From UHGV virus genome UHGV-0285842: a stretch of DNA of 34,986 bases; one strand, given 5' to 3'. Position numbers and translations under genes: made by a program. The stretch's first letter is position 1, and each line of letters starts with the position of its first letter. Under the pieces are notes generated by a model. That model had not been told where the DNA came from. It did no database searches and worked only from the letters and a program-made list of their open reading frames with translations. Positions 4,599 to 24,440 of the stretch are shown here, one piece after another. This stretch comes from a virus.

Positions 4599-4633
4599 AG
4601 TAGTGTCCTCGAAAATAATAAGTTCACTACTAT

Positions 4634-5420: not shown

Positions 5421-5429
5421 ATTACCCCC

Positions 5430-5777
5430 TTAGATCATTTCGAAGATATAACCAATAAAGCGCATACCCTTGATATAATAAGGAGCAGTGCCTACACACA
5501 CCGCGCGTGCATCGCCCAGACAGTTAAAGCTATAAGGATTAACCACATCAACTTCTTGTCCTACACGAAAACGATACTTAGGACGTTTAGCCAATGTAGC
5601 GACACAAAACACGGTCCCTTTTTCATGATCGCGGATACATTCTTTATATTGTTTATGTTTAACTCTCTTCGCCTCAAAATCATGTGTCATAGATTCTGGG
5701 CTAATGCCATTAATAAAAATACCGGAAAGCTGATCGACCGGATAAGTAGGAAATTCAGTGAAAATATTTTTAGCCAT
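5430..5777 (-). CDS. hypothetical protein (115 aa)
   Basis: ORF with GGGGG Shine-Dalgarno 7 nt before ATG 5777; stop overlaps the ribosome-binding site of the M15 gene. Confidence 0.55.
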   Translation of the reverse strand: MAKNIFTEFPTYPVDQLSGIFINGISPESMTHDFEAKRVKHKQYKECIRDHEKGTVFCVATLAKRPKYRFRVGQEVDVVNPYSFNCLGDARAVCVGTAPYYIKGMRFIGYIFEMI

Positions 5778-5815
5778 GTTATACCCCCATAAGTTTCTAT
5801 GAGGGTATTTATGGA

Positions 5816-6499
5816 TTAAACGTATTTCATGCGCGATTTAATGTGCTTATTGATGTTTTCAAGCATCATTGCTTCGTTGCTTTCCCACGATCCTAGCGTC
5901 GAATAACGAGTAGAAATTTTATCCGATTTAACGGCAACAATTCGCTTGCTCTGTTTCTGTATGCGTTTCTCTAAGCGACGTTTTGCCACCGCCGATCCAT
6001 TCCTAGCGCGTTTGGTTCGGGATTTCTTAGGCTTGTACTTCTTCATGATAAAAGTCCCTTCCTTGTTCTCTACCTTGATGAAGTTGCCGTTTTCGAGGTT
6101 ACGCATCATCTTACCGCCTTTGATGGCCTTAATGTTCCCGTGGGCGTCTAAGACCTTACCGTTGGCGATTGGAACTAGCTTATTGATTTTGCCCCCATCG
6201 AAATAGTGTTTCAGATAGTCGTCCTGACTGCCGATCTTCTTATCCTTATCCCTTGCGCCCTTGATGAAGATTTGGTGTCTCGTCCCTGATCGGTTCTTGT
6301 AGTTGGTATTACCTACAGCTTGCTGAGTCCAGCGAGTAGGTCTATCAACATTCTTGTTAATCTTCTTCTGGAGTGCTCTGGAAGCAAAGATCGCCCCTTC
6401 CCCTAGTGCCCTTTCGAATGTATCGGTTGCCTTTTCAGACCATTGCCGTAACGCTTTCTTAGTCCTTAGAGCGTTTCGTTTATTGGTACTGGTTGCCAT
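5816..6499 (-). CDS. hypothetical highly basic Lys/Arg-rich protein (227 aa)
   Basis: ORF with AGGGGGCTAAC ribosome-binding site before ATG 6499; strongly basic composition. Confidence 0.55.
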   Translation of the reverse strand: MATSTNKRNALRTKKALRQWSEKATDTFERALGEGAIFASRALQKKINKNVDRPTRWTQQAVGNTNYKNRSGTRHQIFIKGARDKDKKIGSQDDYLKHYFDGGKINKLVPIANGKVLDAHGNIKAIKGGKMMRNLENGNFIKVENKEGTFIMKKYKPKKSRTKRARNGSAVAKRRLEKRIQKQSKRIVAVKSDKISTRYSTLGSWESNEAMMLENINKHIKSRMKYV

Positions 6500-6500
6500 G

Positions 6501-6671
6501 TTAGCCCCCTAATAACGAAAAGACCCCCGCCAGTGTCCTTAGCAATTGTTCATCCACGGTCATAGCCGGGAGTTCAAGCCCAAAGGACGTAAGCAGAGGT
6601 CTAATTGCTACGTTATAAGTGAGGGCGACAATCAAGAGATAACCAAAATATTTCTTAAGTTTATTCTTCAT
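6501..6671 (-). CDS. small single-pass membrane protein (56 aa), lysis-associated candidate
   Basis: Internal ATG 6671 preceded by AAGGGGTGAATAT; hydrophobic segment YFGYLLIVALTYNVAI. Confidence 0.4.
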   Translation of the reverse strand: MKNKLKKYFGYLLIVALTYNVAIRPLLTSFGLELPAMTVDEQLLRTLAGVFSLLGG

Positions 6672-6690
6672 ATATTCACCCCTTTTATTA

Positions 6691-6969
6691 TTATTTTTGT
6701 TTGAGTATGTCGAGAACTTGGTCAAACTTAGCGTCCATCGCAACCACTTTCTTCTCTATACCGTGTAGTGTTTGTTCCATTTGGTAAACACGTTCAGCAA
6801 TCTGAGTATGGTTATTCTGCATCGTCTCAAACTTCTGGTTTAACAATGCGTCGCTGGATTCCAATTTCGACAATCTATTTTCTGTGGCTAATTGATTTCG
6901 GTGAAGTCTCCAAAGCCCACCACAAATTAAGGCGATAACACCGATACCGCCATATATAATTTCAGTCAT
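6691..6969 (-). CDS. membrane protein with N-terminal transmembrane segment and coiled coil (holin- or i-spanin-like)
   Basis: ATG 6969 with GGGGGCG Shine-Dalgarno; transmembrane stretch IIYGGIGVIALICGGLW then heptad-rich periplasmic/cytoplasmic part. Confidence 0.45.
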   Translation of the reverse strand: MTEIIYGGIGVIALICGGLWRLHRNQLATENRLSKLESSDALLNQKFETMQNNHTQIAERVYQMEQTLHGIEKKVVAMDAKFDQVLDILKQK

Positions 6970-7011
6970 TACGCCCCCGATATTTTTATATAATTTAATG
7001 GCAGAATTATT

Positions 7012-7057
7012 TAGATAAAAATAATCCCGCCTAACTCAAAAGAATTAAGCGGGATTA
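7012..7057 (-). terminator. hairpin terminator downstream of the J-like gene
   Basis: Stem TAATCCCGC (7022-7030) / GCGGGATTA (7049-7057), 18-nt loop, U-run on the minus-strand transcript. Confidence 0.5.
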
Positions 7058-7074
7058 ATTATTAGAATTAAATT

Positions 7075-10000
7075 TTAAGAAACAGAAATACCAGTAGCGG
7101 CTTTCTTAGTTACCATTACCGTTAGATCGCTGATATATGCACTTGGGTTATAGTTGTTAACGCCCTTACAGTAAACTTCAAAAGTCATTGTTACTGCCCC
7201 GTGTCCGGCTGGCATGTCAATAACTCCACTGTACATACAGCCAGAAGTTGCAGTGCGATCATATAGAACACCACCATTTTTCTTAACGATTAGTCGGCAA
7301 GTATCCCAATGATCGCTACTTTCGCCACGACGAACAGACCCGTTATGATGAATCGCTGGAATCACTATTTGGCGATCGAATGGATGATCATCTTCGACCC
7401 TTACAGTGATTGCACCATCAGGCCAGTTTGGTTGGCGATGTGGGAAACTCCTACCAACCACTTTCACGAAGTCACCACGCACCTGATTAGCATCAAGCAT
7501 ACCCAAAATGCGGCAACTTGAATTAATCGTTACGTTGTTCATTTCGCCGGAATCAGCCACCAAATGACCACGAATATTAGCGTGTCTAAAATGACAAGTG
7601 CCATCTTTGCCGATATACCATCCATCGTTACCATTCCAGTTATAAGACTGGATATAGTTACCAATTTTAGCATTATCGATAGAGCCATCAATGATATGAC
7701 CTGTTCCGATCTGTGCGTGTTGGATGTGAGCGCCGTTAATCTGGGCTGTGCCGATCTTAGCCGTGGTGATACTAGCATCACTAATCTGGGCTGTGCCAAT
7801 TGCAGCATTACGAATCATCGCATTATCAAGATAAACTTTGTTATCTTCGATGCCAAACGGACAAACTTCTGATCCGTCTTGTGGAGCTACCGCGATTTTA
7901 TCAGCCGTAAAGATGATTCTTGTCGGTTCTGCCGGATCATTGGTTGCGCTCATATGAATACCAGCCACGCGACCATCTGCATTAACTGCCAGATTATATT
8001 TGCTGTTAATGGTTCCCTTCAAAGCATCGATTTTTACATCTGCTTCCTGATTCACACCAGCAATCTTGCCATCCATTTCTACCCGAACTTGATCAATCTT
8101 ACTTGCGCTTGCTGCCTCACTGGTAGCAATTGCTTGTTTCAGGGTAGTAGCGGATGCGCTAACTTCTTTGGTGATATCGCCTTTCAGTTCAGCTTTAACC
8201 TGATCAATCTTAGTTGCGCTGGCTTGCTCACTGGTAGCAATCAGACTCTTGAGAGTATCGGCTGAGGCTTGGACCGTCTGCCCTGTCTCGGTAGTAATCT
8301 GTTTATGCATTGCATCAATCTTAGCATCGGCATTAGCGCCAGCTTGAGCAATAGCATCCGCGATGGTTTCATCTAAGCGATCTTGTAAACCAATCAGGTC
8401 TTCCAGTGCTTCTTTGTCCTGATCGTCCCAGCTAATGGTAGATTTCATTTGCATGAAATACGGTTCAGACCAAACAGCATCATCCATGCCGAAAATATCA
8501 TAGTGAGCACCACGGATATAATAATCACCGTCAGCCAAATCAAAGGAAGTATGACTAACGCTATTGGTAGTCACTGCCCTTGCATCGGAGAAAGTATTAT
8601 CGGTTGCATACTGGATGATTGACCCTGCATAGTCATGTTCTACGTCATCCGCCCAGCTAACAAACGCAGTATTAAAGCCACCACGCGCACTAAAACCTTT
8701 CATCGGCTTATGTTGTGGGTTGATAGCCACTAAACGCGCTGGGGCGCTCTCTGAGTTGTTATAGCCCTTGACTGATACTTCTACCGTCAATTCACGGGAA
8801 AGGCCGTTAAACTGGTTCATATCAAGCGTATAAGTCCATGATTCAGGATCGCGGGTACGGTACTGAATAGACTTACCAGCCTTGTTAGTTACCTTGATAA
8901 TGTATGCTTCAAACAGGTCACTAAACTTGTTAGCTTCACCGTTGATCATCACATCTAATTGTTGCTGATTTTCCCATTCGATAATCAGATCATTGCCTTC
9001 GAAAGTACCAGGCGTGCTACCCTGATTTTTGATTCGAATAACCGGAGTCGGCAATTCATAGGTAACAGTAGGATTCTGGTTAACCAGTTCCACCCATTCG
9101 GAACGAGCAATAATACCGAAAGCACAAACGCGGTAATCGTAGGAGCGATCTTTTGCCAGTGCATTGATATTGAAAATTTGCTGTGAAGTCTGCCCCAGCT
9201 TAATCCAGTTAGGCGATCCACTTACACGGTAATCAATCTGGAAACCGTAGCGGTTAAAATCTTCCGGTGCATCCCATGTCAAAGTAACGTTTTTACCGTG
9301 GATTGTCTCACCAGTTGCCTTAATTCTGAAATTAGTAGGCTTCTGTACTGTCATTGAATCCGGTAAACCAGTAGGTCTATTGTCTGGAGTCGCCGCATAG
9401 TTCAGGTCAGTATAAACCTGAGAATTATATTCTGTAGCGGTGATAGTCATCATCCCAGCAATACCAGAATCAATCGAGCGATCAATTGCAGTAATACGCC
9501 ATAAGGAATTATTCAGCTTCAATTCATCATATGTTACGCTGATAACGTCCCAAACTTCGGCAGTGAATGCGTCAGTAGTCATAAAGCTGATAACCTGAGT
9601 GATACGAGATTTATTTCGTTCTACACTCGCTAGTTTATCAATCTGGGCTTTAGACTTAACAAAACGATATTCAATATCTTTAGCGATAATTCGACCATCT
9701 TGACGAATAGTAGCATCGTTTTCAGCATCAGCCGGATAACGTAGCATTTGCTCTGAATAGTCGATTGATGGTTCTTGATACATCGCGTTAATGGTATTGA
9801 AATAACCGTTAGTGCCACCTGTTTTCAGTGATACCTTACCCATCATGATATTGTCTTCATTGAAGGTATGCTTAACAATATCAGGAGCATCCAGTTTCAG
9901 CGTAATACGTCCAAAGGATTCGAACATCACCCCGCCGAAAGTCTGCATAAGGCTAGTTAAGTTCTCTTTAAAGCTGGCGTTCGGATCACATGCACCGTTG

Positions 10001-10821
10001 GAATGTAAATCCATCTGGCGTACTTGTTTACGCACTTTCAGGAATGAATCAACGTTAATATTTTCAATCGGTACACTAAGACCATACTTTGTATTTGTCA
10101 GATAATGGAAAATCTGGTCCACGCCGTTAGTGCTAGCCTCAATAGCATTGGTTTCAAGGTTACGAATCTTTAAGCCCATAACATCGACCGCTACCTGGCT
10201 ATTAGGCTGGAGAATATCAACACCAGCAGCCAAAGATTTGTCATCACGACGTAAAACAATACACATGGTCGCAATGCCGTTACCCTGATACCGATCATCC
10301 CAATCAGCGCCCAAATGATGTTTAGCTAAATCCAATGCAGTGTTAGGATTTTTACCCGTGCGAAACTCGACTTCTAAAACTTTGCGGTATTCGTCTTTAA
10401 TGTTTCCTTTATCGAGAATGCCATCACGAATTGTCATATTCTGGCTAATGAGAACGTTTTTATTATCGATGTGCAGTGCTTTAAAGTGATCGATCTCACC
10501 TTCGGCAATAGCAAAAATTTGTACCAGCTTGTTATTTTCACGCTGTGAAATTGCCTTGTAAACGCAGATTGCACCCGTGCGGGTAGTACCAAAAAGAACG
10601 GGTAATACTGTTTTCGGATCGTTTGATGTTCCTAGTGTCACCGCATTATCTGGGCTTTGTACTTTCGGTGTTTTTGGTGCGCCTACAGTGGAAGCGATCA
10701 AGGTCATTGCACCAGCAGCCATCCCGATAGCGACTGCGGTCATAACAGAAAATGTTGCGGCTGCCGCCATCCCCGCCGAAGCACCAGCGATCACCGCGCC
10801 TACTAATATTTCAAATCCCAT
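7075..10821 (-). CDS. central tail fibre / host-specificity protein, lambda gpJ-like (1248 aa)
   Basis: N-proximal block LVQIFAIAEGEIDHFKALHIDNKNVL resembles the lambda J N-terminus; fibronectin-III-like segment; C-terminal 120 aa (DDHPFDRQIV...MPAGHG...MVTKKAATGISVS) parallels the lambda J receptor-binding end as I recall it. Start overlaps the stop of the upstream gene (TAATG). Confidence 0.85.
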   Translation of the reverse strand: MGFEILVGAVIAGASAGMAAAATFSVMTAVAIGMAAGAMTLIASTVGAPKTPKVQSPDNAVTLGTSNDPKTVLPVLFGTTRTGAICVYKAISQRENNKLVQIFAIAEGEIDHFKALHIDNKNVLISQNMTIRDGILDKGNIKDEYRKVLEVEFRTGKNPNTALDLAKHHLGADWDDRYQGNGIATMCIVLRRDDKSLAAGVDILQPNSQVAVDVMGLKIRNLETNAIEASTNGVDQIFHYLTNTKYGLSVPIENINVDSFLKVRKQVRQMDLHSNGACDPNASFKENLTSLMQTFGGVMFESFGRITLKLDAPDIVKHTFNEDNIMMGKVSLKTGGTNGYFNTINAMYQEPSIDYSEQMLRYPADAENDATIRQDGRIIAKDIEYRFVKSKAQIDKLASVERNKSRITQVISFMTTDAFTAEVWDVISVTYDELKLNNSLWRITAIDRSIDSGIAGMMTITATEYNSQVYTDLNYAATPDNRPTGLPDSMTVQKPTNFRIKATGETIHGKNVTLTWDAPEDFNRYGFQIDYRVSGSPNWIKLGQTSQQIFNINALAKDRSYDYRVCAFGIIARSEWVELVNQNPTVTYELPTPVIRIKNQGSTPGTFEGNDLIIEWENQQQLDVMINGEANKFSDLFEAYIIKVTNKAGKSIQYRTRDPESWTYTLDMNQFNGLSRELTVEVSVKGYNNSESAPARLVAINPQHKPMKGFSARGGFNTAFVSWADDVEHDYAGSIIQYATDNTFSDARAVTTNSVSHTSFDLADGDYYIRGAHYDIFGMDDAVWSEPYFMQMKSTISWDDQDKEALEDLIGLQDRLDETIADAIAQAGANADAKIDAMHKQITTETGQTVQASADTLKSLIATSEQASATKIDQVKAELKGDITKEVSASATTLKQAIATSEAASASKIDQVRVEMDGKIAGVNQEADVKIDALKGTINSKYNLAVNADGRVAGIHMSATNDPAEPTRIIFTADKIAVAPQDGSEVCPFGIEDNKVYLDNAMIRNAAIGTAQISDASITTAKIGTAQINGAHIQHAQIGTGHIIDGSIDNAKIGNYIQSYNWNGNDGWYIGKDGTCHFRHANIRGHLVADSGEMNNVTINSSCRILGMLDANQVRGDFVKVVGRSFPHRQPNWPDGAITVRVEDDHPFDRQIVIPAIHHNGSVRRGESSDHWDTCRLIVKKNGGVLYDRTATSGCMYSGVIDMPAGHGAVTMTFEVYCKGVNNYNPSAYISDLTVMVTKKAATGISVS
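8088..8258. repeat. imperfect ~60-bp direct repeat (period ~111 bp) inside the J-like gene
   Basis: 8088-8148 and 8199-8258 are ~80% identical (both contain GATCAATCTTA...CTCACTGGTAGCAAT), encoding repeated ATSE-AS-KIDQV peptide units. Confidence 0.6.
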
Positions 10822-11240
10822 TATTCACCCCCGAATCTATAAACTTGTTCATAGTCAATGTCTGAAACAGGAATGGTCATCCAGATACCATCTTCTTCAA
10901 CGAGGCCATAACCGGAATAATGAGGAACTACGGAATAATATTTGCGGTTTCCTAATTTGTGGGCTGTGACCAGTAAGTCGCCGTCCTGTAAATCATCAGT
11001 GACTAATTTGAAATGTTTCTTAATTGGTTGAAGGATATTTGTGTATCCGCTTAATTCTTTGCAGATTTTCAAGCCTTCTTCTTTAGTTGAATATTTTTTA
11101 TAAAGAGAATTATATAGGTCAGTACCAGCGAGAATATCGATGATCTTACATGCAATTATATTGCAATCATTCTCGCCTTGAACGAACTCCTGACCTATTA
11201 AAGAATTGATGTAATCGGTGATAAGCCTAGTTTTTAGCAT
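10821..11240 (-). CDS. tail assembly protein, K-like position, with NlpC/P60-like Cys motif
   Basis: ATG 11240 with GGAGG Shine-Dalgarno (track ORF start at 11396 lies inside the upstream gene). GENDCNIIACKIID and downstream His residues suggest a small cysteine-peptidase fold; position between L-like and J-like genes. Confidence 0.45.
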   Translation of the reverse strand: MLKTRLITDYINSLIGQEFVQGENDCNIIACKIIDILAGTDLYNSLYKKYSTKEEGLKICKELSGYTNILQPIKKHFKLVTDDLQDGDLLVTAHKLGNRKYYSVVPHYSGYGLVEEDGIWMTIPVSDIDYEQVYRFGGE

Positions 11241-11286
11241 GTTGAATACCTCCATGCTGTTATTTACTAGGCTTAGGGAGAAGGGA

Positions 11287-11940
11287 TTATTTCTTCGATG
11301 AATGCCACTTGCTTTCCGATTGCCAGCGCCCGGTCCTTGAGAAGAATAGATCATTCTCGTTTCCGGCATAGGATCGGTGGATACCATCGGAGGCATGACT
11401 ACGAGCGTTTTTATCTAGAACTTCCCAGATACTATTAAGCTGAAATTCTGATTCGTTTTTACACTCATCATCTTCATGTTCGATGTTAATCCCGATGGAA
11501 TCGACTACCCCACGGAAAACAGGGTAAGTGGTTTCAACCTTGCCCGTGTTAGGGTTCAGGAACACCATTTCGATTTTCACATCTGATTTATCGAATTGCT
11601 TGTTTCGAATCAGGGTAATGTATTCCTCGCGAACGTTAGAAACGGTTACGTTAATCCCGTTGTTGTTAATCTCCTTCTCTTCGGTATTCGATGAGATTTG
11701 AAGAAAATCACCCGTTGCGAGATACGTAAATCCGTTATAGTCCAAATCGAAATACCCATCAGTAAGCCGTAGAACGTCCCCTGACGCTGTTATCACTTCG
11801 ATAATGTGAAACATCGATCCAGTGGAAAAAAGCTGCGGTAGCGTCAATCTAGTCACGTTCTGACCTGTCTGGTCGTTGTAGACCTCGATGAAGTCCAGAT
11901 TAGTGCATAGTTTGCTGAATGATTCCTGAATAGTTGCCAT
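11287..11940 (-). CDS. minor tail protein, L-like position (217 aa)
   Basis: ATG 11940 overlaps the stop of the upstream gene (TAATG); synteny with lambda L. Confidence 0.5.
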   Translation of the reverse strand: MATIQESFSKLCTNLDFIEVYNDQTGQNVTRLTLPQLFSTGSMFHIIEVITASGDVLRLTDGYFDLDYNGFTYLATGDFLQISSNTEEKEINNNGINVTVSNVREEYITLIRNKQFDKSDVKIEMVFLNPNTGKVETTYPVFRGVVDSIGINIEHEDDECKNESEFQLNSIWEVLDKNARSHASDGIHRSYAGNENDLFFSRTGRWQSESKWHSSKK

Positions 11941-12500
11941 TATACATTCTCCACTAATTCGAATTTCATCTTGCCAATCTGGGCGATCTTCCAATCGATG
12001 TTTTCAGTTTTGAGAACAAATTCACCTTCTACGTTCTGATACTTGATCACCTCACCCGCCAGGACGTTCTGACGCAAGTTAGGGAAGAGTTTCATTTCAC
12101 CACCTGATTTCACGTCTTCGGTGATCGTGTAGATTTTCTTGTGGTTCTCAAACTGGATGACAGTTCCCGCTTTCAGTGTTCCGGTGAAGTTGGAGATTCT
12201 CACCTTACGCCCACCGCGAGCAGTACCAGCAGCAGCCGTTACCATCTGGCGTACATCACCTGTATATTTTGAAAAGTAAGACAGTGGCACACTAAAAGGA
12301 CGACCAAAAAGGTGACGTGCTACAAATTCTTTTACTTCGTTAATATCCTGAGCCATGTAATTCGCGGTAAATTCTGCTTCGTAAAAATGGATGCCAGTAA
12401 AGCGACGCTGGAACTTACCGGAGATAGATTGCGCCTTGAAGAAAGGCTGTTTTGATTTAAGAGTAAAATCTGTGATTTTAATATTCTTGGATTTGAACAT
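11940..12500 (-). CDS. minor tail protein, M-like position (186 aa)
   Basis: ATG 12500 with GGGGG Shine-Dalgarno that lies in the 3' arm of the 12504-12547 hairpin; follows the tape measure gene. Confidence 0.45.
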   Translation of the reverse strand: MFKSKNIKITDFTLKSKQPFFKAQSISGKFQRRFTGIHFYEAEFTANYMAQDINEVKEFVARHLFGRPFSVPLSYFSKYTGDVRQMVTAAAGTARGGRKVRISNFTGTLKAGTVIQFENHKKIYTITEDVKSGGEMKLFPNLRQNVLAGEVIKYQNVEGEFVLKTENIDWKIAQIGKMKFELVENV

Positions 12501-12503
12501 AGA

Positions 12504-12547
12504 AAAGCCCCCATAGTTTTATGATTATTTATCACTATGGGGGCTTT
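12504..12547 (-). terminator. 13-bp perfect hairpin with U-tract immediately after the tape-measure stop; 3' arm contains the next gene's Shine-Dalgarno
   Basis: Arms AAAGCCCCCATAG (12504-12516) and CTATGGGGGCTTT (12535-12547), 18-nt loop; on the minus-strand RNA the stem is followed by UUUUCUAUG (start codon of the 11940-12500 gene). Confidence 0.6.
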
Positions 12548-12550
12548 TAA

Positions 12551-14980
12551 TTACATCTTACGACGCTGAACGTCTTCTATCGCCTGAGCAACAAACTTAG
12601 CGTGACGTTTGATAGCATCCATGACCATCTTGTCTGAGCTATTAACGTTGCCGTTAATGTTCAAAGGCGCATTTACTTCAATCGGCTGAGAGTTACCACC
12701 ACCTGATTTTTGAGCAGCAAGGAAGTCTTTCAAATCACCGTTAGTACGCTGATCAACTACTCGTTCACCCTTATCAAGCAACCATGTACCCTCACGAGGG
12801 ATGTTATCAATACCATCATGAGCCATACCGCTAACGTTAGTAGACTTGATGTTTGCGATGTTCCCCATGTTCTGAGAAACAGCCAATGCAGCAGCCGCGA
12901 TTTTTTGACCTGTGGTGACGTTGGTCGGATCGTTCCATGCATCGGTAGCAGCCGTCCACATGTTCACCGTCGCTTGTCCAATGGAGAATGCTTTATGAGC
13001 ATTGAAAGCCATCTGCATAGCTTTAGTGTTTTCCTGCCCGAAGAGAGTCATTGCAGCAGCAAAACCGCCGTACATATCATCGGCTATTGACTGGCGAGCA
13101 TCAGCATATTTCTTCTCAATTGCAGCCATTCGTTTTTGATGGTTTTCATTGAGTTTTTCTAATGCTTCCATCCGTTTAGCCGGATCATTAATACCGTCAA
13201 TCTTGAGTTTATCGGTCTTATAATCTTGTTCAGCATCCGATTTCTCTTTATCGATTGCATTAAATTTAGCAAACGGATTATTTGAGTCTTGATAATCATA
13301 ACCACTAGTTAATTGATTGGTTTTATAACCATCCATTCCCTGTAAAGAATTTTCAATCTGAGAATAGTTTTGCTCGGTATCGTTCACACGACGCATATAT
13401 TCTTCGTAGGAGATAGCTTTACCATCAAGTAACCGTTTATGGCTTTCTAGCTCGTTGTCCCTGATTTGTTGCAATTGTGTTAAAGCATTCAGAGCATCAA
13501 TCGGATCAGCACCCAACATCATTTTATAAACGTTTTCAGTATTCTGATCGATTAGCGCCTGGCGTTTCGCGGCTGCGTCTTCCTGAGAGATTAAGCCCAG
13601 AGCTAACGCGTCGTTCACATCTTTTAAGCTGTTTTGCAACTGGCTATTTTGAGAAGTGATAGACGCTGCAACTTGCCCTTGCAATTTAACATCAAGTGCA
13701 TTCAGTCGCTTGATTGCATCCTCGCGTGCTTTCTGTGCTTTTTCTGCGGCTTCCTTAGCCTTTTTAGCTGCCTCTTCCGCTTTCTTGCGTGCTTCTTCTT
13801 CGGCTTTCTTCTCATTACCAGACTTACCCAATGATTCTGGTCTTACTGGTTTATTTGGTATAGTCAAATCACGGTTAGGATCTGCCTTGCGGGTTAGATG
13901 TTCCCCGTTATCGACAACAATCAGAGAGCCATTTTTCTTATAAGAATCACCAAAACGTTTCTTAAATCCTTCAACATCAAAGCCAGCAGTACGAGGATCG
14001 ACACCAGCACCACGGATCGCGGCCTTTTCCCAATCTGCCAGATTATTCCAACGCTTTTCTTTATTGTACTTGTCAATAATTTTTTGAGCGTCTTTATGGT
14101 TGGCGTTAAGAATACCGCCAGTTGCGGTCTTGCCTTCTTTATTCAGTCGATCTAATGCCCTGAATAGAGAACTCTTTTCCCAATCAATATTAAACCAGTC
14201 AAATAACCAGTTTAAACTATCAACCAGCGGACCAGAAATGGTCATACCGACACCTTTCAGGTTATTTTCCAGCTTATTGATATTTTGAGAAAATTTATCA
14301 TATTTTTTAGCGTTTTCTTCGGTGACGTTAACAGATTGATTCTGAATAGCGATCATCGCCTCTTGAGCAGTATTATATTTCTCAAGCTGGCTGGTCATAT
14401 GGCTTGAATCACTGGCTAAAGATTCCATCATGAACTTGATTTCAGCCATTGATTTTCCGGCTTTCTTCATGTCATAGAACACTTGGATCGCCGCTTTCAT
14501 ACCACCTTGCGGATCAGTCATGAAGTGAGCATAGTTTTCTAACTTAAGGCCAACCGATTCTAAGTCATCGGCAATACCGCCACCGTTAGCCCATGCATCA
14601 CCCATTTTATCTAAGGTGTCTTTGTTGATATCACCAAATTTTTCAACTGTTAGGCCAGTGCCAGCAAATTCCTTTTCTAGTCTTTGAAGGGATTCAATCG
14701 AGAGTCCGGTCGCCTTAGATACTTCTGAATACTGTTTAACGTATTCCGCACCAGCTTTAGCGGCTGCAACCACTGCGGTCGCAACTAAGCCGATACCACC
14801 AGCAGCTAAACCAGCAGAGCCAGCAATACCACGAAGAGATCCAGTCAGACCAGACAAGCCACCACCAAAATCAATATTACTTGCCTTTTCAGACAAATCA
14901 TCGAGCAGGTCAGCGGCTTCACTAGTGCTTCTCTTTAGCCCTTTATTATCCCCTTCTATTGTTACTATATGTTTTGTCAT
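12551..14980 (-). CDS. tail tape measure protein (809 aa)
   Basis: Size and position after the G/T-like chaperones; N-terminal hydrophobic Gly/Ala segment, long coiled-coil Lys/Glu/Ala region. ATG 14980 with AAGGGGTAA. Confidence 0.8.
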   Translation of the reverse strand: MTKHIVTIEGDNKGLKRSTSEAADLLDDLSEKASNIDFGGGLSGLTGSLRGIAGSAGLAAGGIGLVATAVVAAAKAGAEYVKQYSEVSKATGLSIESLQRLEKEFAGTGLTVEKFGDINKDTLDKMGDAWANGGGIADDLESVGLKLENYAHFMTDPQGGMKAAIQVFYDMKKAGKSMAEIKFMMESLASDSSHMTSQLEKYNTAQEAMIAIQNQSVNVTEENAKKYDKFSQNINKLENNLKGVGMTISGPLVDSLNWLFDWFNIDWEKSSLFRALDRLNKEGKTATGGILNANHKDAQKIIDKYNKEKRWNNLADWEKAAIRGAGVDPRTAGFDVEGFKKRFGDSYKKNGSLIVVDNGEHLTRKADPNRDLTIPNKPVRPESLGKSGNEKKAEEEARKKAEEAAKKAKEAAEKAQKAREDAIKRLNALDVKLQGQVAASITSQNSQLQNSLKDVNDALALGLISQEDAAAKRQALIDQNTENVYKMMLGADPIDALNALTQLQQIRDNELESHKRLLDGKAISYEEYMRRVNDTEQNYSQIENSLQGMDGYKTNQLTSGYDYQDSNNPFAKFNAIDKEKSDAEQDYKTDKLKIDGINDPAKRMEALEKLNENHQKRMAAIEKKYADARQSIADDMYGGFAAAMTLFGQENTKAMQMAFNAHKAFSIGQATVNMWTAATDAWNDPTNVTTGQKIAAAALAVSQNMGNIANIKSTNVSGMAHDGIDNIPREGTWLLDKGERVVDQRTNGDLKDFLAAQKSGGGNSQPIEVNAPLNINGNVNSSDKMVMDAIKRHAKFVAQAIEDVQRRKM

Positions 14981-17223: not shown

Positions 17224-20200
17224 TTACCCTAATTTAGCTTCAATTGCAGCAAGACGTTCACGAAGAAGTTTATTTTCTTCGCTCATTTCTTGGACCGCTT
17301 TAATTAAAAGCGCGTTCACTGCGGAGTTTGAAATTGTTAAAATTTCTTCTGGGTTATCAAGACCACCAATTTTTGCGGTTTTAACAGCTTCCGGTAATAC
17401 CTCTTGTAAATCCTGTGCGATAATACCAATCTCATGACCTATAACTTCTCGGTCATTAAGAGATTTAACTTTATCGTAGGTTTTAACTTTGAGTTTATTT
17501 ACCTTATCCACCGCATTTTCTTCGTAATCTTCAACATTAATTTTCAGACGACCATCGGAACGAATATAAACATCGTTAAAGTTACCATTACCAGGAGAAT
17601 AGAAAGTACCATCATGATGGAACTCGAATACAGCTTGAGGATGACCAGCCGCTGGCGATGCCTCCGCAGATCCAACACGAATAATAGCTTGCCCCCAATT
17701 TTGAGGAACACGACGCATACCAAAATCGACGGCAGTTGTATACCCTTGATTGGTGATTAAACTTCTTCCTTTAATAATTGGATAATAGCTATCTGGTCCA
17801 ACATAGCCATGATCGACGAATATTGGAGCTTCTAATCCCCATTGATCGCCCCAACCTCCAGATTGGCTAGCAGTCCAACGTTCACCATGAACATAGAATC
17901 GAACGTTATTGACATGAGTCATTTCGACACCTTTTGGACTTAGCGCGATATCACCCGCGTTTGTAATATTGATAGCAGCATTAGTAGCATAGCTATAGAA
18001 CGCTAATCCATTATCAGCACCACCTTTACCGATATACCAGTTGTTATTATCAGCACAAGTACCCAGCAAATATATAGACGAATCACCCGTTTCGGCATTC
18101 ATGACGATTGCGTCAGAACCACGATTAACTTTAAGTTTCCCGAAGAAGGTGTTTTTAATGGTATTATCACCCAATCGTTCAAATTCTGCTAAAAATCCTT
18201 TTGAGTCACGAAGACTTAAAACGTTATTTCGACCTGTATTGCTTGCACCCCAATGGACGAGTTCCATATAGTCCATAGATTGACGAGAACCAGCTTTAAA
18301 GAACAGGTTGTCTTCGAGACGAGTGCTACCATCAATTCCAAGATGCAAACAACGAGCAGTTTCAGTGCCACCTAAATATAATCCACCGTCAGCAAAATTA
18401 TAGCTGAATGGTCTACGAGTATTCCACGGTCCAAATGAATCACCGAGATCTGTGGTAAGAATATGGAAGCCAACGCCATCATTTCTAAAAATTAAGCCAT
18501 AATTGCCACCTTTAACAGCCAAACGAGCATTTTCAGATAATGCAACTTCGCTATTCATTACAATTTTCTGGCCTTTACCGCCAGTAATATGCAATTCACC
18601 ATCTTCAATCAGGTTTATAGAGTTTTGACCGTTATCGTTCCACCAAATAAAATCTTTGGTCGTCAAATCACCAAAACCAAACCAACCATTACGAACATCT
18701 TGACCAGTGCGATAATCCATAAAATTAAAATGGCTTGATTCGTTTGGTCCTCGACGAATATCAATACCAGCATTACCAGTACCACCATCCAATGTTAATT
18801 TCTTGATATGTAACCCGGATGTTGCTGTCAGCAATAATTCCTGATTTGTATCTTCGTATCCAGTAGCAAGACGATATGCGTTATCATCAACTGTCTCATG
18901 CCAGATTGTAGCTGGTGCACAACTACGGAAGCGACGCAACATCTTTTTAGCATTTGTCGGTTGTTCGTTTAAATGCTCAATATCATATTGGCCTTGATGA
19001 TTGCCAGCAAAATTTAACGTCCCACGGTTGCTAAAGTTATTGAACGATGAAATGTTAAGAGCATCAAAAATTTCGTCTGCAACAGGTTTTTCACCACCCA
19101 GATATTCAGGAGTATCCAACAGGTTTAAAGAAACACCACCGGAAGAAACTTGATATTCTGCTAAAACAAATCCTGTATGTGCACCGTAGTAAGCGTAAAG
19201 ATCGTAATTGTCGCCATCGGTTGGAATAGCGCAAAAATGTTGTTCATAATGCCAAATAGTATAATACGCATTGAATACAACACCTTTCGGGCTATTGTTG
19301 CCGCATCGAATCACCAATTCGATAATATTGGCTTGTCCATTATGTCCTACGTTATAACCGTTACCACCAACCAAACGGATCTTAGCCGTGCGACCGTGTT
19401 GTTGTGGCATTGTCAAAGTGCCTAGTTTAAACCAACCACCCTCGATACCAAAATTAAGCGTCTTCTGGAACAGTCGGTCAATTTCTGCTTTCGAATATGC
19501 GCCAATTTCAGCCGGAGTAGGTTTATCGCCTTCATGATACATGCGGTGAGAATATGACAAATTACCTAATTCATCATAGCCGTATGTTCTTACAGTAGCA
19601 TGTGGATTAGACCCATAAGTGAACTCGAAGCCACGAGCATGATTAACACCAGATGGATGCGGAACATGCAAGATCATTGCAATATGACCCGCCAGGTCAT
19701 TCATGCGGAATGCACCAAAGTAATCAAGATTACGCGCATTTGGATCATCAAAATAGTTTGCGGTCTTAGACAGCAAATAACCATCAGTATAAGTGTTTAC
19801 GTGTTTTTTGATGTACTTGCCATCAGCAGATCCATCGGCTGCATCAATACGGCTTTCTAAACGTGCCAGTTCAGAATCAGTGTAAGACTTGTTATTGTCA
19901 ACTTTGCTATGAATTGCTGTATTTTTGGCTTCAACATCACGGGTTAATGCTGCGACGTTATCCGCTGCCTCTTGCTTATTGGCTGCAATCACACCAGTAA
20001 GGTTATTGTAGGTGTCAGTTAACTGATTTTCCGCATAGACTTTATTTGCTGCGATAGTGCGGTCAGTTTCTGCCTTAATCAAATCAACCTTGTCATTGAT
20101 TGCTTTGTCATTGCTTGCGATGGTTGCATCGGTGCGGGATTTAATATCATCAACTTTTTTATTGATGCGGGTGTCCAGTTCCTGAGTTGCTACAGCAGCC

Positions 20201-20631
20201 GCATTTTTATTAGCGTTGATGGTATCCGACAATTCAGCTTTAACACCAGCAAGGTCGGAAGCAGCTTTATTTTTATTGGCCTCGATTGTCGCGTCGGTTT
20301 CGCGTTTAATTACATCAACTTTATTGTTAATTTCTGCGTGATTTGCTGCGATGGTTGCATCAGTAGTTTGTTTAATTTCATCTACTTTAGCGTGAATATT
20401 GCGGTCATTTACTGCAATTGTGCTATCTAGTTCTTGTTTGTTAGCATCAACTTTAGATTCTAGTGCCGCGTGAGTTTCAGGAGAAACAGAGATTTGAACT
20501 ACTTCATGATCTCGGTCTTTGGTAAAAATAACATGGTCTTTAAGGTTGATTGCTACCTCACCGACCTGTAATTGTTCCGGCGTTGGTTTTTTGCCAGAAA
20601 CATTAGTTCGTTTAAATTGGATTGATTGCAT
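17224..20631 (-). CDS. side tail fibre (1135 aa) with C-terminal peptidase S74-type intramolecular chaperone domain
   Basis: N-terminal repeated KVDxIKxxTDATIxAN units, central beta-helix-like Gly/Asn-rich region, C-terminal ~110 aa (SDGRLKINVEDY...LLRERLAAIEAKLG) resembling autoproteolytic chaperone domains of phage fibres and endosialidases. GAGGTGA Shine-Dalgarno before ATG 20631. Confidence 0.8.
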   Translation of the reverse strand: MQSIQFKRTNVSGKKPTPEQLQVGEVAINLKDHVIFTKDRDHEVVQISVSPETHAALESKVDANKQELDSTIAVNDRNIHAKVDEIKQTTDATIAANHAEINNKVDVIKRETDATIEANKNKAASDLAGVKAELSDTINANKNAAAVATQELDTRINKKVDDIKSRTDATIASNDKAINDKVDLIKAETDRTIAANKVYAENQLTDTYNNLTGVIAANKQEAADNVAALTRDVEAKNTAIHSKVDNNKSYTDSELARLESRIDAADGSADGKYIKKHVNTYTDGYLLSKTANYFDDPNARNLDYFGAFRMNDLAGHIAMILHVPHPSGVNHARGFEFTYGSNPHATVRTYGYDELGNLSYSHRMYHEGDKPTPAEIGAYSKAEIDRLFQKTLNFGIEGGWFKLGTLTMPQQHGRTAKIRLVGGNGYNVGHNGQANIIELVIRCGNNSPKGVVFNAYYTIWHYEQHFCAIPTDGDNYDLYAYYGAHTGFVLAEYQVSSGGVSLNLLDTPEYLGGEKPVADEIFDALNISSFNNFSNRGTLNFAGNHQGQYDIEHLNEQPTNAKKMLRRFRSCAPATIWHETVDDNAYRLATGYEDTNQELLLTATSGLHIKKLTLDGGTGNAGIDIRRGPNESSHFNFMDYRTGQDVRNGWFGFGDLTTKDFIWWNDNGQNSINLIEDGELHITGGKGQKIVMNSEVALSENARLAVKGGNYGLIFRNDGVGFHILTTDLGDSFGPWNTRRPFSYNFADGGLYLGGTETARCLHLGIDGSTRLEDNLFFKAGSRQSMDYMELVHWGASNTGRNNVLSLRDSKGFLAEFERLGDNTIKNTFFGKLKVNRGSDAIVMNAETGDSSIYLLGTCADNNNWYIGKGGADNGLAFYSYATNAAINITNAGDIALSPKGVEMTHVNNVRFYVHGERWTASQSGGWGDQWGLEAPIFVDHGYVGPDSYYPIIKGRSLITNQGYTTAVDFGMRRVPQNWGQAIIRVGSAEASPAAGHPQAVFEFHHDGTFYSPGNGNFNDVYIRSDGRLKINVEDYEENAVDKVNKLKVKTYDKVKSLNDREVIGHEIGIIAQDLQEVLPEAVKTAKIGGLDNPEEILTISNSAVNALLIKAVQEMSEENKLLRERLAAIEAKLG
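20040..20420. repeat. imperfect tandem repeats (~48 bp units) in the fibre N-terminal shaft
   Basis: Recurring GCGATGGTTGCATC...TTTAAT-TCATC-ACTTT blocks, at least four copies, encoding the repeated KVDxIK-TDATI peptide motif. Confidence 0.5.
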
Positions 20632-20702: not shown

Positions 20703-21536
20703 TCAGTATTCCCCGAAATCGATCCGGTCATGGATAGAAACGGCTTCAATCTCGGCTGGTGTCGGTTTTTCTTCTGTGGAATACAATTTCACCCATCCAG
20801 AATTACCGTCTTTCTGGACTGTGCGAACTCGTAAACGTGGTGCACCAGAAGCGGTGCAAGTTAATTGCCATCCACCATCTTCATTAGGTTGAACGTGAAT
20901 TAGTGAAGTATCAGCACTAAATGGGTTAGATGCGCTCGATCCCTGATAGGTTACGAAACGGTTTCCGGCTAATGCTTCGCTATCAATCGGACCCGTGAAT
21001 GGATTTACACCAGCACCCAAACCAAAATCACCCTGACGTAAGATCCGGCCTTCGGTAGCAATACCGCGATCTAGAATCCCGCCATCAGGTTCTAATTTAA
21101 ACTCGATTGTAGTAACTTTGTTATCACCGGATTTTGTTTTATGTGACGAGACATAAGCGTCAAAAATGACGTAGTAACCTGTGTTAGCAGCACTGTAACC
21201 AGAGTTCACAACATAGAACATACGAAAGCGTAAAGGAGTTTTATCATTCACCGCTTTCATCAACATGTCTTGATGTTCGTCATCCAGAACACGGTTTACT
21301 ACTAACGTAGTTGATTCAAGTTTACGATAGCCAGCAAGTTTACCCGTAGCGTCCTGATCATACTCTTCTAACGTCTGGATCTCTGTGGATTCGGTTATCG
21401 TCGGGAATGCTGCGATGTTCTCGATAGGACTAAATGCAGGATCGAAAAAGTCCGGCTGGTTATCCACCATAGTAGACACGGAGACTTCAACATGCGACCC
21501 CGTGAAAATGTCTAAGTTATCTTGTGTAATATTCAT
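20703..21536 (-). CDS. virion structural protein (277 aa), possibly tail- or fibre-associated
   Basis: AAGGGGTAATA before ATG 21536; beta-rich; C-terminal EEKPTPAEIEAVS echoes KPTPAEIGAYS and KKPTPEQLQVGEVA in the adjacent fibre. Confidence 0.4.
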   Translation of the reverse strand: MNITQDNLDIFTGSHVEVSVSTMVDNQPDFFDPAFSPIENIAAFPTITESTEIQTLEEYDQDATGKLAGYRKLESTTLVVNRVLDDEHQDMLMKAVNDKTPLRFRMFYVVNSGYSAANTGYYVIFDAYVSSHKTKSGDNKVTTIEFKLEPDGGILDRGIATEGRILRQGDFGLGAGVNPFTGPIDSEALAGNRFVTYQGSSASNPFSADTSLIHVQPNEDGGWQLTCTASGAPRLRVRTVQKDGNSGWVKLYSTEEKPTPAEIEAVSIHDRIDFGEY

Positions 21537-21545: not shown

Positions 21546-21968
21546 TTAAAAACGCGCTAGATAAGAAAATTTAAGGCTAAGTGTCCCAACGATACCCCCA
21601 TCACTAGAATCATCGTCATAATCGGTATTAGAAGCTACTGGAGTGATATCTGAAATAGAGAAGCCCAAATCTTTAAATCGTGGGTTATCTGGCTGAATCT
21701 GGATTATCTGGCAAATACCCTCATGAATTTTGGTTTCATGATTCTGAGAATACAACTGCATTTCGATAACGCATTCAGCTTGCATTGCATTACCACCACG
21801 GACCCTATTGTAAGTCTCATTCATTCCGGTAATCCAACAAACCACATCATCACTAAAGCCTTGCTGAGTTTGTTCTACGTTTAAAGCCAGACCTAAATCT
21901 TGTTCGATAATATCCTGCAAGGCGCGTTTGATTTTCAGTCTAGGCATATTATTAACGGTAGCGAGCAT
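21546..21968 (-). CDS. head-tail joining / tail completion protein (about 140 aa)
   Basis: ATG 21968 with GGGGG Shine-Dalgarno (track ORF start at 22016 lies inside the upstream gene); position after capsid and connector genes. Confidence 0.4.
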   Translation of the reverse strand: MLATVNNMPRLKIKRALQDIIEQDLGLALNVEQTQQGFSDDVVCWITGMNETYNRVRGGNAMQAECVIEMQLYSQNHETKIHEGICQIIQIQPDNPRFKDLGFSISDITPVASNTDYDDDSSDGGIVGTLSLKFSYLARF

Positions 21969-22242
21969 GTGTACCCCCTGCACGAGCAATAAAGCAATCA
22001 GTTGTATTGTCACCATTGCGCTTAACGTATTGAACTTTGAAACGCTGATTTTCTACAGTGACAATATCACCCTGCTTTAAGTCTCCCTCACGACAAAATA
22101 GAAATTCTGTCTCTGTCATTACCCCTGATTCGTCGGTAGTAGTAATTTCATGATAAGCACGAATTGATTTACCACCTTCCACCGAAAATACAGGAGCACT
22201 TCGGAACATTCTTGATAATTGTGATTCTGATAATTTGAACAT
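21952..22242 (-). CDS. head completion / connector protein (96 aa)
   Basis: AAGGGGGTAACT before ATG 22242; small protein directly downstream of the capsid gene. Confidence 0.45.
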   Translation of the reverse strand: MFKLSESQLSRMFRSAPVFSVEGGKSIRAYHEITTTDESGVMTETEFLFCREGDLKQGDIVTVENQRFKVQYVKRNGDNTTDCFIARAGGTHARYR

Positions 22243-22272: not shown

Positions 22273-22298
22273 AAAAAAGCCCCACCGTTAGGCAGGGC
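22273..22298 (-). terminator. intrinsic terminator after the capsid gene
   Basis: Minus-strand RNA GCCCUGCC-UAAC-GGUGGGGC (8-bp stem with two G-U pairs) followed by UUUUUU. Confidence 0.6.
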
Positions 22299-22433
22299 TA
22301 ATTATTATTCTTTAGTTTTACGTTGTTTTTTAACTGTGGCTTTCGCCGTAACCGTCTGAGATTCTTCTTCCTGAGATGGAATCAGATTTTCTTCCCCCAA
22401 ATCGGGGGAAGGTTCAGAAGGTTCTACGCTAGT

Positions 22434-24440
22434 TCATTCAGCGGAGATGTGAAGAACTTTCAGAGCTTCCGGCTGAACTACGGTGAAGTCCAGGTCTACC
22501 CAGATACGCGGAACGATAGCAGACTGTGCACGGTAGGTAGTGTCATCCATATCCAGTTCCAGACCACCCCATTCGCCGATCATGATACCGGAGAAGTCAC
22601 CCAGAACGATGTGATCTGCCGGGATAACACCAGAAGTAACTACATCGTAACCAGCCAGTTTGCCGTTTTCGATGATATAACCGGAAACGCCGTTATCTTT
22701 CAGGGTAGATTCCAGTTCAGCAGCAGTTGCACCGCTCATTGCAAACTTGATGGACTGTGCCGGAACGCCAGCGTCGGTCAGTGCTGCAATTTCTTTCAGG
22801 AAGTCTTTGTAGCTAAAAGCGGCTTTCTTAGTAACGCGACCACCGTCTACCAGTTGCTTAACCAGACCTTTCGGACCGCGAGTATTGTCTTTGTCAGACA
22901 GAATCAGTTGTTCCAGTTTGATCCGGACAGCTTTGTTAATGTGATCAGTGATCAGAGTAGCAATATTCGGAACAGTTTTCAGAGACTGACGGCTGATCGG
23001 GTTGCCACCAGCAAACGTCTTAGGAGCCATTTTCACGTTTGCAAATTCAGCTTTGCTTTCCGGTGCAGCACCGTTTTCATCAACGAAACCGAAAGCATCT
23101 ACGCTGGAAGCAGTCATTTTCGGTACAGCAATCGGAGCATTCAGACCAGACAGAACAGTCACACCGAGGCGGCCTAAAACACTCTGAGGCAACAGCATTT
23201 CAACATAGGATTCGGTCAGCAGTTTTTCGTCGGTGATATCAGTCAGAGTAGCTTTGGTGTTACCATCAGCAGCAGCACGCAGAGCAGCAGCCGGAACGAA
23301 TACAGAGCCACCGCGAGCAGCACGACCACGCTGCATTGCAGCACCAGCAGCCATAGCGGAATATTCAGCTTCGTTAGCACCCAGAGCAGCACCATCTACC
23401 AGAGAGCGAATTACGTTGTTCAGGTCAAAAGTTTTTTCCATTTTAGAGTCCTTAATTTGTTGTTCGTTGTTACGTTGAGCAGTAGCGATTTTATTTAGTG
23501 CCTTAGTGCGGAATGCTTCCGGCGTCATATCTTTAACTGCCAATGCGCGTTCTAATTCTTCGTCGTTAATATTTAGCTCGCGTGCAATTTCGCGAATTTC
23601 TAATTCGTCTTCTTCGGAACGTTCAGCCACTTCTTCGATTTTTTCTTCTTCAACCGGAGCAGCTTCACGTTCTTCTTTTACTTCTTCTGCTTCCCGAACA
23701 GTTGAACTATCATCATCAACACTTTCAGGATGTTCAGCGTCTTTTCCGTCTTCGAGATTTTCATCTTCTTTATTCTCTTCAACTTGGCGCTCTTGAGTTT
23801 CTTCAACTTCCGGTTCTTTATTTTCTTCTACCGGAGTTTCTTCAACCTGAGCGGCTTCTTGTTCTTCTTTGATTTCTTCGATTTGTTCTTTAGTCATATC
23901 GCGTTTAGCCTCCAAATTAACTGTGATAGTATTTAGAGAGCGATTTAAACCGACAGAATCATCGGCAGGGACCGTCACAAATGAAATTTCAAAAGGTGCC
24001 CACTTAGTAACAATCAATTGCCCTTTGGCGTAATCGATTTGATATTCTTTAATGTCATAACCGACAGAAATTTTTTCCATCGTACCTTCAATGACTTTAT
24101 TGCGAATATCATTAGCCATAGTTCCATGCTTAGAGAATTTAACCAGAGCACGACCTACGTTATCCGCATCGATTCGAGCGTTACAAACGACACCAATGTG
24201 ATTATCGAAATTATGATTAAACAGCAACGGAGCGTTATTATTCAGACGAGACAGATCAACCGCTTCCGGTGTATGTACCAGAATTTCATCTAATACCACC
24301 ATTTCTTGATTTTGCTCATCCCAGAATTGGCGCTGATAAGGCTGTTCACTGGAGAAAGCAATTTCAAATTCGTATTGATCGTTCTGCCCTTCGTTAATAA
24401 CTCCACCGTAACCGTTAAGATCGCGGCGAAATTTAAGCAT
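22434..24440 (-). CDS. fused prohead protease (HK97 gp4 / S78-like), acidic scaffold segment and HK97-fold major capsid protein (668 aa)
   Basis: N-terminal ~170 aa with protease-like pattern (EFEIAFSS...LLFNHNFDNHIGVV...ISVGYDIKEY), central Glu/Lys coiled-coil low-complexity region, C-terminal ~330 aa capsid-like (SGVIPADHIVLGDFSGIMIGEWGGLELD...). AAGGTGA before ATG 24440. Confidence 0.75.
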   Translation of the reverse strand: MLKFRRDLNGYGGVINEGQNDQYEFEIAFSSEQPYQRQFWDEQNQEMVVLDEILVHTPEAVDLSRLNNNAPLLFNHNFDNHIGVVCNARIDADNVGRALVKFSKHGTMANDIRNKVIEGTMEKISVGYDIKEYQIDYAKGQLIVTKWAPFEISFVTVPADDSVGLNRSLNTITVNLEAKRDMTKEQIEEIKEEQEAAQVEETPVEENKEPEVEETQERQVEENKEDENLEDGKDAEHPESVDDDSSTVREAEEVKEEREAAPVEEEKIEEVAERSEEDELEIREIARELNINDEELERALAVKDMTPEAFRTKALNKIATAQRNNEQQIKDSKMEKTFDLNNVIRSLVDGAALGANEAEYSAMAAGAAMQRGRAARGGSVFVPAAALRAAADGNTKATLTDITDEKLLTESYVEMLLPQSVLGRLGVTVLSGLNAPIAVPKMTASSVDAFGFVDENGAAPESKAEFANVKMAPKTFAGGNPISRQSLKTVPNIATLITDHINKAVRIKLEQLILSDKDNTRGPKGLVKQLVDGGRVTKKAAFSYKDFLKEIAALTDAGVPAQSIKFAMSGATAAELESTLKDNGVSGYIIENGKLAGYDVVTSGVIPADHIVLGDFSGIMIGEWGGLELDMDDTTYRAQSAIVPRIWVDLDFTVVQPEALKVLHISAE

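Follow-up and report, generated by a model that had tools for sequence, protein, structure and literature searches.

A conserved candidate internal start in the protease–scaffold–capsid fusion gene of a lambda-like prophage

Introduction

In phage lambda (C/Nu3) and in herpesviruses (UL26/UL26.5), an in-frame start for the scaffold lies inside the protease gene. In-frame scaffold starts within protease genes are also described for Mu and PaMx73 (gene 27) (PMC4378225). In a further class of phage genes, exemplified by roseophage R4C gp6, Halomonas phage phiHAP-1 gp5 and the corresponding genes of Vibrio phage VP882, the Rhodobacter cluster RcC and the Microbacterium cluster EE phages, prohead protease, scaffold and major capsid protein are fused in one frame. 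This architecture is already known from PHROG families, an NCBIfam model, phage records and published descriptions, and the gene analysed here is a typical member of the catalogued class. It lies on the minus strand at 22434..24440 of UHGV virus genome UHGV-0285842, whose whole stretch of 34,986 nucleotides (nt) is called the window below, and it serves head assembly in a lambda-like siphoviral prophage of E. coli/Shigella.

The initial annotation of the window had read the fusion as implying obligatory self-processing and fixed 1:1 synthesis of protease and capsid protein. The fusion holds up and self-processing is the likely reading, whereas the fixed 1:1 synthesis probably does not hold, given a conserved internal Shine–Dalgarno (SD) sequence and ATG. 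The model that we propose, and to which we assign as a whole a probability of about 0.6, is that the gene makes two in-frame products, which co-assemble and are processed by the protease to a capsid protein of ~270–280 amino acids (aa), with the ratio set by the starts. The parts of the gene on which the argument draws are the following:

22434..24440, minus strand: full-length open reading frame (ORF) for protease, acidic linker, helical scaffold-like module and HK97-fold capsid domain, 668 aa
23937..24380, minus strand: prohead serine protease domain of Peptidase_S78 / assemblin fold, aa 21–168 (Pfam, AlphaFold2)
23909..23915, minus strand: internal SD sequence TTGGAGG, 11 nt 5' of the codon-182 ATG (duplex −9.3 kcal/mol)
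23895..23897, minus strand: in-frame ATG of Met182, the proposed nested start (SD scoring, conservation among lineages)
23628..23936, minus strand: acidic linker, predicted disordered, aa 169–271 (predicted local distance difference test, pLDDT, <50; isoelectric point about 4)
23250..23627, minus strand: helical scaffold-like (delta-domain-like) module, aa 272–397 (AlphaFold2 pLDDT 72–94, conservation)
23217–23249, minus strand: hinge, aa 398–408 (pLDDT <50), where the solved R4C chain begins
22437..23216, minus strand: HK97-fold major capsid domain, aa 409–668 (Pfam, match to PDB 8gta, Foldseek)

A candidate internal start at codon 182

Every in-frame start codon of the gene was scored by the pairing of its upstream sequence with the 3' end of 16S rRNA. 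A check for an internal start near the scaffold segment, which the initial annotation had advised, yields a candidate at codon 182 (TTGGAGG, 11 nt, ATG), whose predicted duplex is stronger than that of the annotated start (−9.3 vs −6.9 kcal/mol). Met182 falls within the predicted disordered stretch directly after the protease domain, and its position suggests a protease-free nested scaffold–capsid product encoded by 22434–23897, of 487 aa and 52.9 kDa. A σ70-like promoter 5' of the internal start, which would mean a nested transcript, was not found, and this is weak negative evidence.

A weaker second candidate lies further downstream:

23439..23441, minus strand: Met334 (site B), weaker internal-start candidate (AAGGA, 7 nt, ATG at codon 334; −5.8 kcal/mol)

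If Met334 were the functional nested start, alone or beside Met182 (site A), the product would be a capsid protein of 335 aa and 35.3 kDa, with an N-terminal extension of ~55 residues if it is cut after Arg388. We consider this improbable. The same Met preceded by AAGGA does recur in L042, L055 and DCP80, and these include the sole lineage without site A. Family-wide, however, site B was rejected as a second start (5/12 lineages vs 3.5 expected, P = 0.23); moreover, the SD-like AAGGA comes from conserved Lys-Asp codons, and Met334 is inside a predicted long helix (307–336), so that the product would be without most of the scaffold. Met residues of this type, with AAGGA at 7–8 nt and just before the motif [FY]-[DS]-L, were seen in the gamma-proteobacterial branch only (the window, L042, L055 and L002/DCP80), where they may be an alternative nested start, including in L042, which is without a Met182-type start.

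Conservation of the candidate internal start across the family

The homologous place in R4C reads GGAGG, 5 nt, ATG, and in DCP80 it reads AAGGAA, 6 nt, ATG; these two were the most distant of the homologs first compared. For the family as a whole, 73 fused ORFs from IMG/VR, GTDB genomes and GenBank phages were given domain boundaries by hidden Markov models and clustered at 55% identity into 19 lineages. The zone was set at 5–70 codons after an invariant PAD motif (66 codons), and a duplex of at most −5 kcal/mol was required for an SD sequence. Such a sequence precedes an in-frame ATG of the zone in 18/19 lineages, whereas the remainder of these genes would predict 27% (binomial p 8e-10). Because the linker is purine-rich, the result was also conditioned on local SD density. 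SD-like sequence stands before 20% of all zone codons (elsewhere 23%) compared with 62.5% of zone ATGs (Fisher p 1e-7), and after conditioning on both SD density and ATG number 5.5 lineages would be expected, while 0/200,000 simulations reached 18. The association is specific to the frame, with an SD sequence at 20/32 in-frame vs 5/21 out-of-frame ATGs. Predicted mRNA structure (−25 to +25) is weaker at the site than elsewhere in the linker in 17/18 lineages (mean z +1.5, p 8e-7), and in 14/18 the internal SD equals or exceeds that of the canonical start in strength. As a control, λ gene C was scored in this way, and its annotated nu3 start was recovered at −6.9.

The signal is also present in 7/7 lineages in which the S78 protease is joined to another capsid family, PF25209 Phage_capsid_4 (Mu gpT-like). 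These S78–PF25209 fusion ORFs (GTDB loci L063, L066, L073, L074, L075, L080 and L082) are 578–696 aa long and come from Acidobacteriota, alpha- and beta-proteobacteria and Verrucomicrobiota. Since S78 is fused to PF25209 as well as to PF05065, protease–capsid fusion exists in at least two capsid families. We give an even chance to the broader proposition that protease–scaffold–capsid 'fusion' genes are nested two-product genes across both capsid families, with an abundant protease-free form and a minor full-length protease carrier.

Two further observations concern related starts. In the Jilinvirus-like clade (L084–L086 and L088–L090; ECO1230-10, FoX2, Persinger, Alexa, Mano and Mica), the post-protease Met opens a motif, M-x-[EIV]-K-x-[LI]-R-[DN]-A-x-G-[ND], that is conserved while the rest of the linker varies; the SDs there are weak (−3.5 to −6.1), and the motif would fit the N-terminus of a discrete module. 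In λ gene C (NC_001416, L091), where the RefSeq nu3 start is codon 239, a stronger combination (AGGAGG, 4 nt, ATG; −10.8) is found at codon 309, and a start there (MTKETQST...) would give a 132-aa product.

Proposed capsid processing and assembly

Gene 006 of R4C encodes 629 aa, and the deposited virion capsid chain (PDB 8gta) has 268 aa, exactly residues 362–629; protease, linker and scaffold are therefore absent from the deposited capsid model of this solved relative. The R4C paper is silent on capsid-protein processing and holds no gel or mass-spectrometry data. The start of the R4C chain corresponds to about residue 399 of the window protein, inside the AlphaFold2 hinge at 398–408. Ten residues upstream of that equivalent position, amid a variable stretch, stands a residue kept in 59/60 diverse homologs:

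23277..23279, minus strand: Arg388, proposed P1 residue of the maturation cleavage (conservation)

Arg388 lies 24 residues from the conserved S-[FY]-[IV]-[ED] motif, and 22 residues separate HK97 gp5 Lys103, which we take to be the P1 residue of the maturation cleavage there, from IIMPGL. Because of this near-invariance and Lys103-like spacing we propose cleavage after Arg388, which would most likely give a mature protein of 280 aa and 29.6 kDa (HK97 gp5* has 282 aa). On the processing of this fusion family nothing relevant was found in a CBASS preprint, in papers on a cluster J mycobacteriophage, a Paraburkholderia prophage and OsHV-1, or in a T5 m6A preprint.

In the mechanism that we propose, one mRNA would carry two in-frame starts, of which the annotated ATG would give the 73.5-kDa protease–linker–scaffold–capsid protein and the codon-182 ATG, with its SD sequence, the 52.9-kDa linker–scaffold–capsid protein. 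As both forms share the scaffold–capsid part, they would co-assemble on the portal into a procapsid, presumably T=7, on the model of HK97 gp5, which carries its scaffold fused to it as the delta domain. The parts N-terminal of the capsid domain would face the shell interior, again as in HK97 gp5, and the long form would thus place the protease in the shell as a capsid subunit, a covalent arrangement that would replace the non-covalent C-terminal targeting tail of HK97 gp4. Within the shell, the protease with the conserved catalytic residues His76 and Ser125 would cut in cis or in trans and remove protease, linker and scaffold. The predicted mature capsid protein is about 270–280 aa, with the cut between Arg388 and the hinge and most probably right after Arg388; this end state is consistent with the chain of the solved relative R4C. 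The protease:capsid ratio would then depend on how strong the two starts are relative to each other and not be fixed at 1:1.

The rough packing estimate took 415 copies (T=7) in a cavity 20–24 nm in radius. A shell made entirely of the long form would hold 18.2 MDa inside, or 38–66% of the volume (radius 24–20 nm), and one made entirely of the short form 9.7 MDa, or 20–35%. A protease-free form would help packing, although the need for one is not proved.

One product or two

The same facts can be read with a single product. The 668-aa polyprotein would then be the only form, made at a true 1:1 ratio with all 415 copies processing themselves, and the SD–ATG would be the relic of a gp4/gp5-like gene boundary or a pause site for protease folding. 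We regard this as rather unlikely, even though several observations agree with it. All database annotations show one coding sequence (CDS), two papers describe one fusion protein (PMC7302621, PMC8601537), the L042 lineage is without the site, several cultured phages have weak SDs and cyanophage S-LBS1 has none, and packing permits an all-long shell. A non-functional relic should decay, however, yet an SD with an in-frame ATG is retained in 18/19 lineages that share <55% identity and span two capsid families. The SD is tied to in-frame ATGs specifically and not to the zone in general, and relaxed mRNA structure centred on the ATG is the signature of a start site and not of a pause. Finally, the other known protease–scaffold fusions (lambda, Mu, herpesviruses) use a nested start.

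A number of points weigh against the two-product model. The zone was set after the first three examples had been seen; without them the count is 15/16 lineages (about p 3.5e-8). The L042-cluster lineage has no SD-preceded start codon of any kind in the zone. Among eight held-out cultured phages, an ATG is present in the zone in 8/8, and the SD reaches −5 in 3/8 (about 1.5 expected), which is weak support; the energies are −5.9 to −6.1 in three and −3.5 to −4.6 in four, with no SD in S-LBS1. Synonymous conservation at the SD was uninformative among 33 E. coli-group copies, as the whole linker is very low in synonymous diversity. The T number is assumed, as is the packing argument, and the case for Arg388 as the cleavage site comes down to conservation and HK97 Lys103-like spacing. 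No protein-level data for two products were found in any family member, and the nested CDS is unannotated, all inspected GenBank and RefSeq records giving a single CDS. An internal start is unmentioned in the two papers cited above and in a preprint (bioRxiv 10.1101/2020.01.10.891226), key subscription papers being outside the literature search; the conserved nested start, for which the statistics are strong and which the mechanism would lead one to expect, may be new, or may already have been published.

The protease domain

The HK97 gp4-like protease similarity claimed by the initial annotation is borne out. Pfam PF04586 (Peptidase_S78) matches aa 40–162 with E 3.5e-11 and 43.9 bits vs a cut-off of 21, and the domain has the assemblin / prohead-protease fold. 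The narrower NCBIfam equivalog TIGR01543 scores 36.3 bits, below its threshold of 59, and by its sequence the protease is a member of the S78 family and not an HK97 gp4 equivalog. A PDB sequence search with the protease region alone returned nothing meaningful. Two residues were located by alignment with HK97 gp4:

24213–24215, minus strand: catalytic His76
24066–24068, minus strand: catalytic Ser125

His76 (LLFNH) aligns with H65 of gp4 (MFFNH) and Ser125 (ISVGY) with S114 (MSVGF), which we take to be the catalytic residues of gp4. Both are invariant in 60 diverse homologs (27% mean column identity) and again in a 23-sequence alignment that includes HK97 gp4, and Glu52 and Glu151 are invariant or nearly so among the 60 homologs. 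This retention speaks against the view, which we hold to be very improbable, that the N-terminal domain is a dead protease relic that serves as extra scaffold while a host or other phage protease does the cleaving; the TIGR01543 score below the cut-off would accord with such a relic. Nor does the head module, from the terminase to the tail genes, hold another protease gene (S49, ClpP or S78), which also counts against this view.

Domain anatomy

The AlphaFold2 model was built on the 60 diverse homologs and has a mean pLDDT of 79. Residues 1–20 are predicted to be disordered, and aa 21–168 form the β-rich protease domain, mostly with pLDDT >90. The initial annotation had described an acidic coiled-coil scaffold. 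A scaffold-like helical module is indeed predicted at aa 272–397, whereas the acidic part (169–271) is separate from it and predicted to be disordered, not coiled-coil. There are 53 Asp/Glu residues in aa 171–300, and the linker contains a 42-nt internal duplication (23646–23687 and 23838–23879, 86% identical) that encodes EEVKEEREAAPVEE and EEIKEEQEAAQVEE. The helical module includes a 30-residue helix at aa 307–336 in the AlphaFold2 model, is only mildly charged and carries the conserved motifs [FY]-[DS]-L and G-x-[FY]-[IV]-P. For the capsid domain, Phage_capsid PF05065 matches aa 410–664 (E 1.6e-26, 93.8 bits vs a cut-off of 24.2), phmmer matches PDB 8gta of R4C at E 6e-27, and the top Foldseek capsid matches are R4C 8gta (E 8e-19) followed by D3, RcGTA and HK97 (about 1e-11).

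In the 33 E. coli-group copies (L004–L034 and L037 among our sequences), synonymous diversity of the acidic linker is 0.02 per codon vs 0.10–0.17 in the protease, helical module and capsid parts, and at nonsynonymous sites the linker is as diverse as the protease. The low synonymous value is explained only in part by two-fold degenerate codons, and both nucleotide-level constraint and a recent recombinational sweep are possible causes.

Integrity, distribution and genomic setting of the gene

The gene is one uninterrupted ATG-start frame of 668 aa and 73.5 kDa, with stop codons in frame just 5' of the annotated ATG. That protease, scaffold-like and capsid parts share this single ORF, as the initial annotation stated, is agreed by the ORF listing, Pfam and PHROG 617 ("major head protein"), which matches end to end (aa 20–663 vs profile 23–621/626, E 5e-95). 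The ORF also matches phrog_4523, named "major head and protease protein", and NCBIfam NF045541, "prohead protease/major capsid protein fusion protein", at E 3e-40, which is nevertheless below the 'exception' cut-off of that model.

The sequencing error or frameshift that the initial annotation had wanted checked is ruled out by the recurrence of the same ORF in Shigella/E. coli assemblies, in complete genomes and on 33 IMG/VR contigs. Proteins of 665–670 aa that are 95–100% identical occur in Shigella flexneri, S. sonnei, S. boydii, E. coli, E. fergusonii and Salmonella under the names "phage major capsid protein" or "caudovirus prohead protease". The gene is matched in 52/5,426 complete E. 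coli genomes, always on the chromosome, with at least 80% of it present in 44, and each full-length match among those listed is annotated as a single CDS. A search of 1.84 billion cluster representatives gave 7,141 matches at E <= 0.001 and, at E <= 1e-30, 540 clusters at 50% identity; 149/150 of the best matches are 560–890 aa long. It can hardly be credited that the ORF is an artefact of sequencing or assembly, or that two genes were joined in this copy only by a recent frameshift or stop loss, when it is found uninterrupted in hundreds of independent assemblies and this many clusters. Some prophage copies do appear to be decaying, since an IS903B transposase is inserted within the homologous gene of the complete E. 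coli genome NZ_OW848980.1 and L035, an IMG/VR copy, is cut short at 393 aa.

Searches with tblastn found the fusion arrangement in 104/50,697 phage records, including phiHAP-1, VP882, the Rhodobacter RcCronus group, the Xanthomonas FoX phages, ECO1230-10 (E. coli) and roseophage R4C. Megablast of 9 kb around the gene gave no match in the phage collection, so there is no close cultured relative. The record of L002, PQ671644.1 'Escherichia phage DCP80', is 140,978 bp long and classed in Straboviridae/Tevenvirinae; its bases 1–13786 carry a large terminase, an ORF of ~500 aa in the portal position and a protease–capsid fusion 46% identical to the window protein, and the record looks like a chimeric assembly or a misclassified one.

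The flanking minus-strand genes form a λ-type head module, in which the fusion gene stands between the portal and a gpFII-like gene. At other places the window encodes a large serine recombinase and a Rha regulator, in keeping with a prophage. The neighbouring features are:

26578–28482, minus strand: gpA-type large terminase
26008–26505, minus strand: gpW-like protein
24486–25997, minus strand: λ-family portal
22278..22299, minus strand: terminator-like hairpin (9-bp stem, 6 G-C pairs, T-run), 3' of the gene within the 190-nt gap after it
21952–22242, minus strand: gpFII-like protein
20703–21536, minus strand: major tail protein

A terminator is annotated at the same position after the capsid gene in HK97, Mano and Mica, and the shared position of the hairpin suggests partial termination after the capsid gene. 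The gpFII-like ORF overlaps the next minus-strand ORF (21546–22016, 156 aa, no family match) by 65 nt, and the real start of the latter gene is probably an internal Met. Directly after the major tail protein, and before ORFs 12551–14980 and the gpJ-like 7075–10821, an unusual position for a fibre gene, lies a 1135-aa tail-fibre-like protein (17224–20631, minus strand) with N-terminal repeats of ~22 aa containing TDATIxAN, a Gp34_trimer domain and a C-terminal Peptidase_S74 intramolecular chaperone. Antisense ORFs in the fusion gene, such as 22323–23177 (plus strand, 284 aa), were set aside as by-products of a purine-rich coding strand, a decision with no database search behind it.

Significance

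If the two-product model is true, the nested start removes the apparent paradox of one protease per capsid subunit, and the fusion phages come under the same rule as λ, Mu, HK97 and the herpesviruses, in which the protease enters as a minor scaffold variant or as a passenger. One protein product would then be missing from the annotation of a gene class as widespread as the 540 clusters imply. Two starts in one frame would also offer a genetic handle on the protease:capsid ratio for the engineering of HK97-fold nanocages. Cultured relatives with structural data or easy genetics include R4C, ECO1230-10, HeidiAbel/Bas97 and phiHAP-1.

Comparison with known systems

The window gene shares with the described fusion class the order of its domains, its place between the portal and the head–tail connector genes and the end-to-end profile match. 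Its protein is 27–46% identical to those of the named phages and has a longer and more acidic linker with an internal duplication, and in architecture there is no difference. Structural relatives of its protease domain extend to T4 gp21, which belongs to a different MEROPS family (S77), and to the herpesvirus assemblins, with only 7–16% sequence identity.

With HK97 gp4 and gp5 the window protein has in common the protease family, the aligned catalytic His and Ser and the capsid fold, together with a scaffold that is covalently joined to the capsid protein and would be removed by the protease to leave a chain of nearly the same predicted length (280 vs 282 aa). HK97 differs in having two separate genes and a non-covalent C-terminal protease tail, whereas the window protease reads through into the scaffold–capsid frame, and no sequence similarity to the HK97 delta domain can be detected in the window capsid protein. 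The likeness to lambda C/Nu3, Mu I/Z and UL26/UL26.5 is of another kind: the long product consists of protease and assembly module and the short in-frame product of the assembly module alone, and in these nested systems the protease is a minor variant of an abundant protein. There, however, the two products have only the scaffold in common and the capsid protein has its own gene, whereas the part shared in the window would be scaffold plus capsid protein; the lambda protease is of family S49 and that of the window of S78, and the nested start of the window is read from sequence. The proposed system would thus combine the logic of HK97, a scaffold fused to the capsid protein, with that of λ C/Nu3, Mu I/Z and UL26/UL26.5, a protease carried as the extension made from an upstream start.

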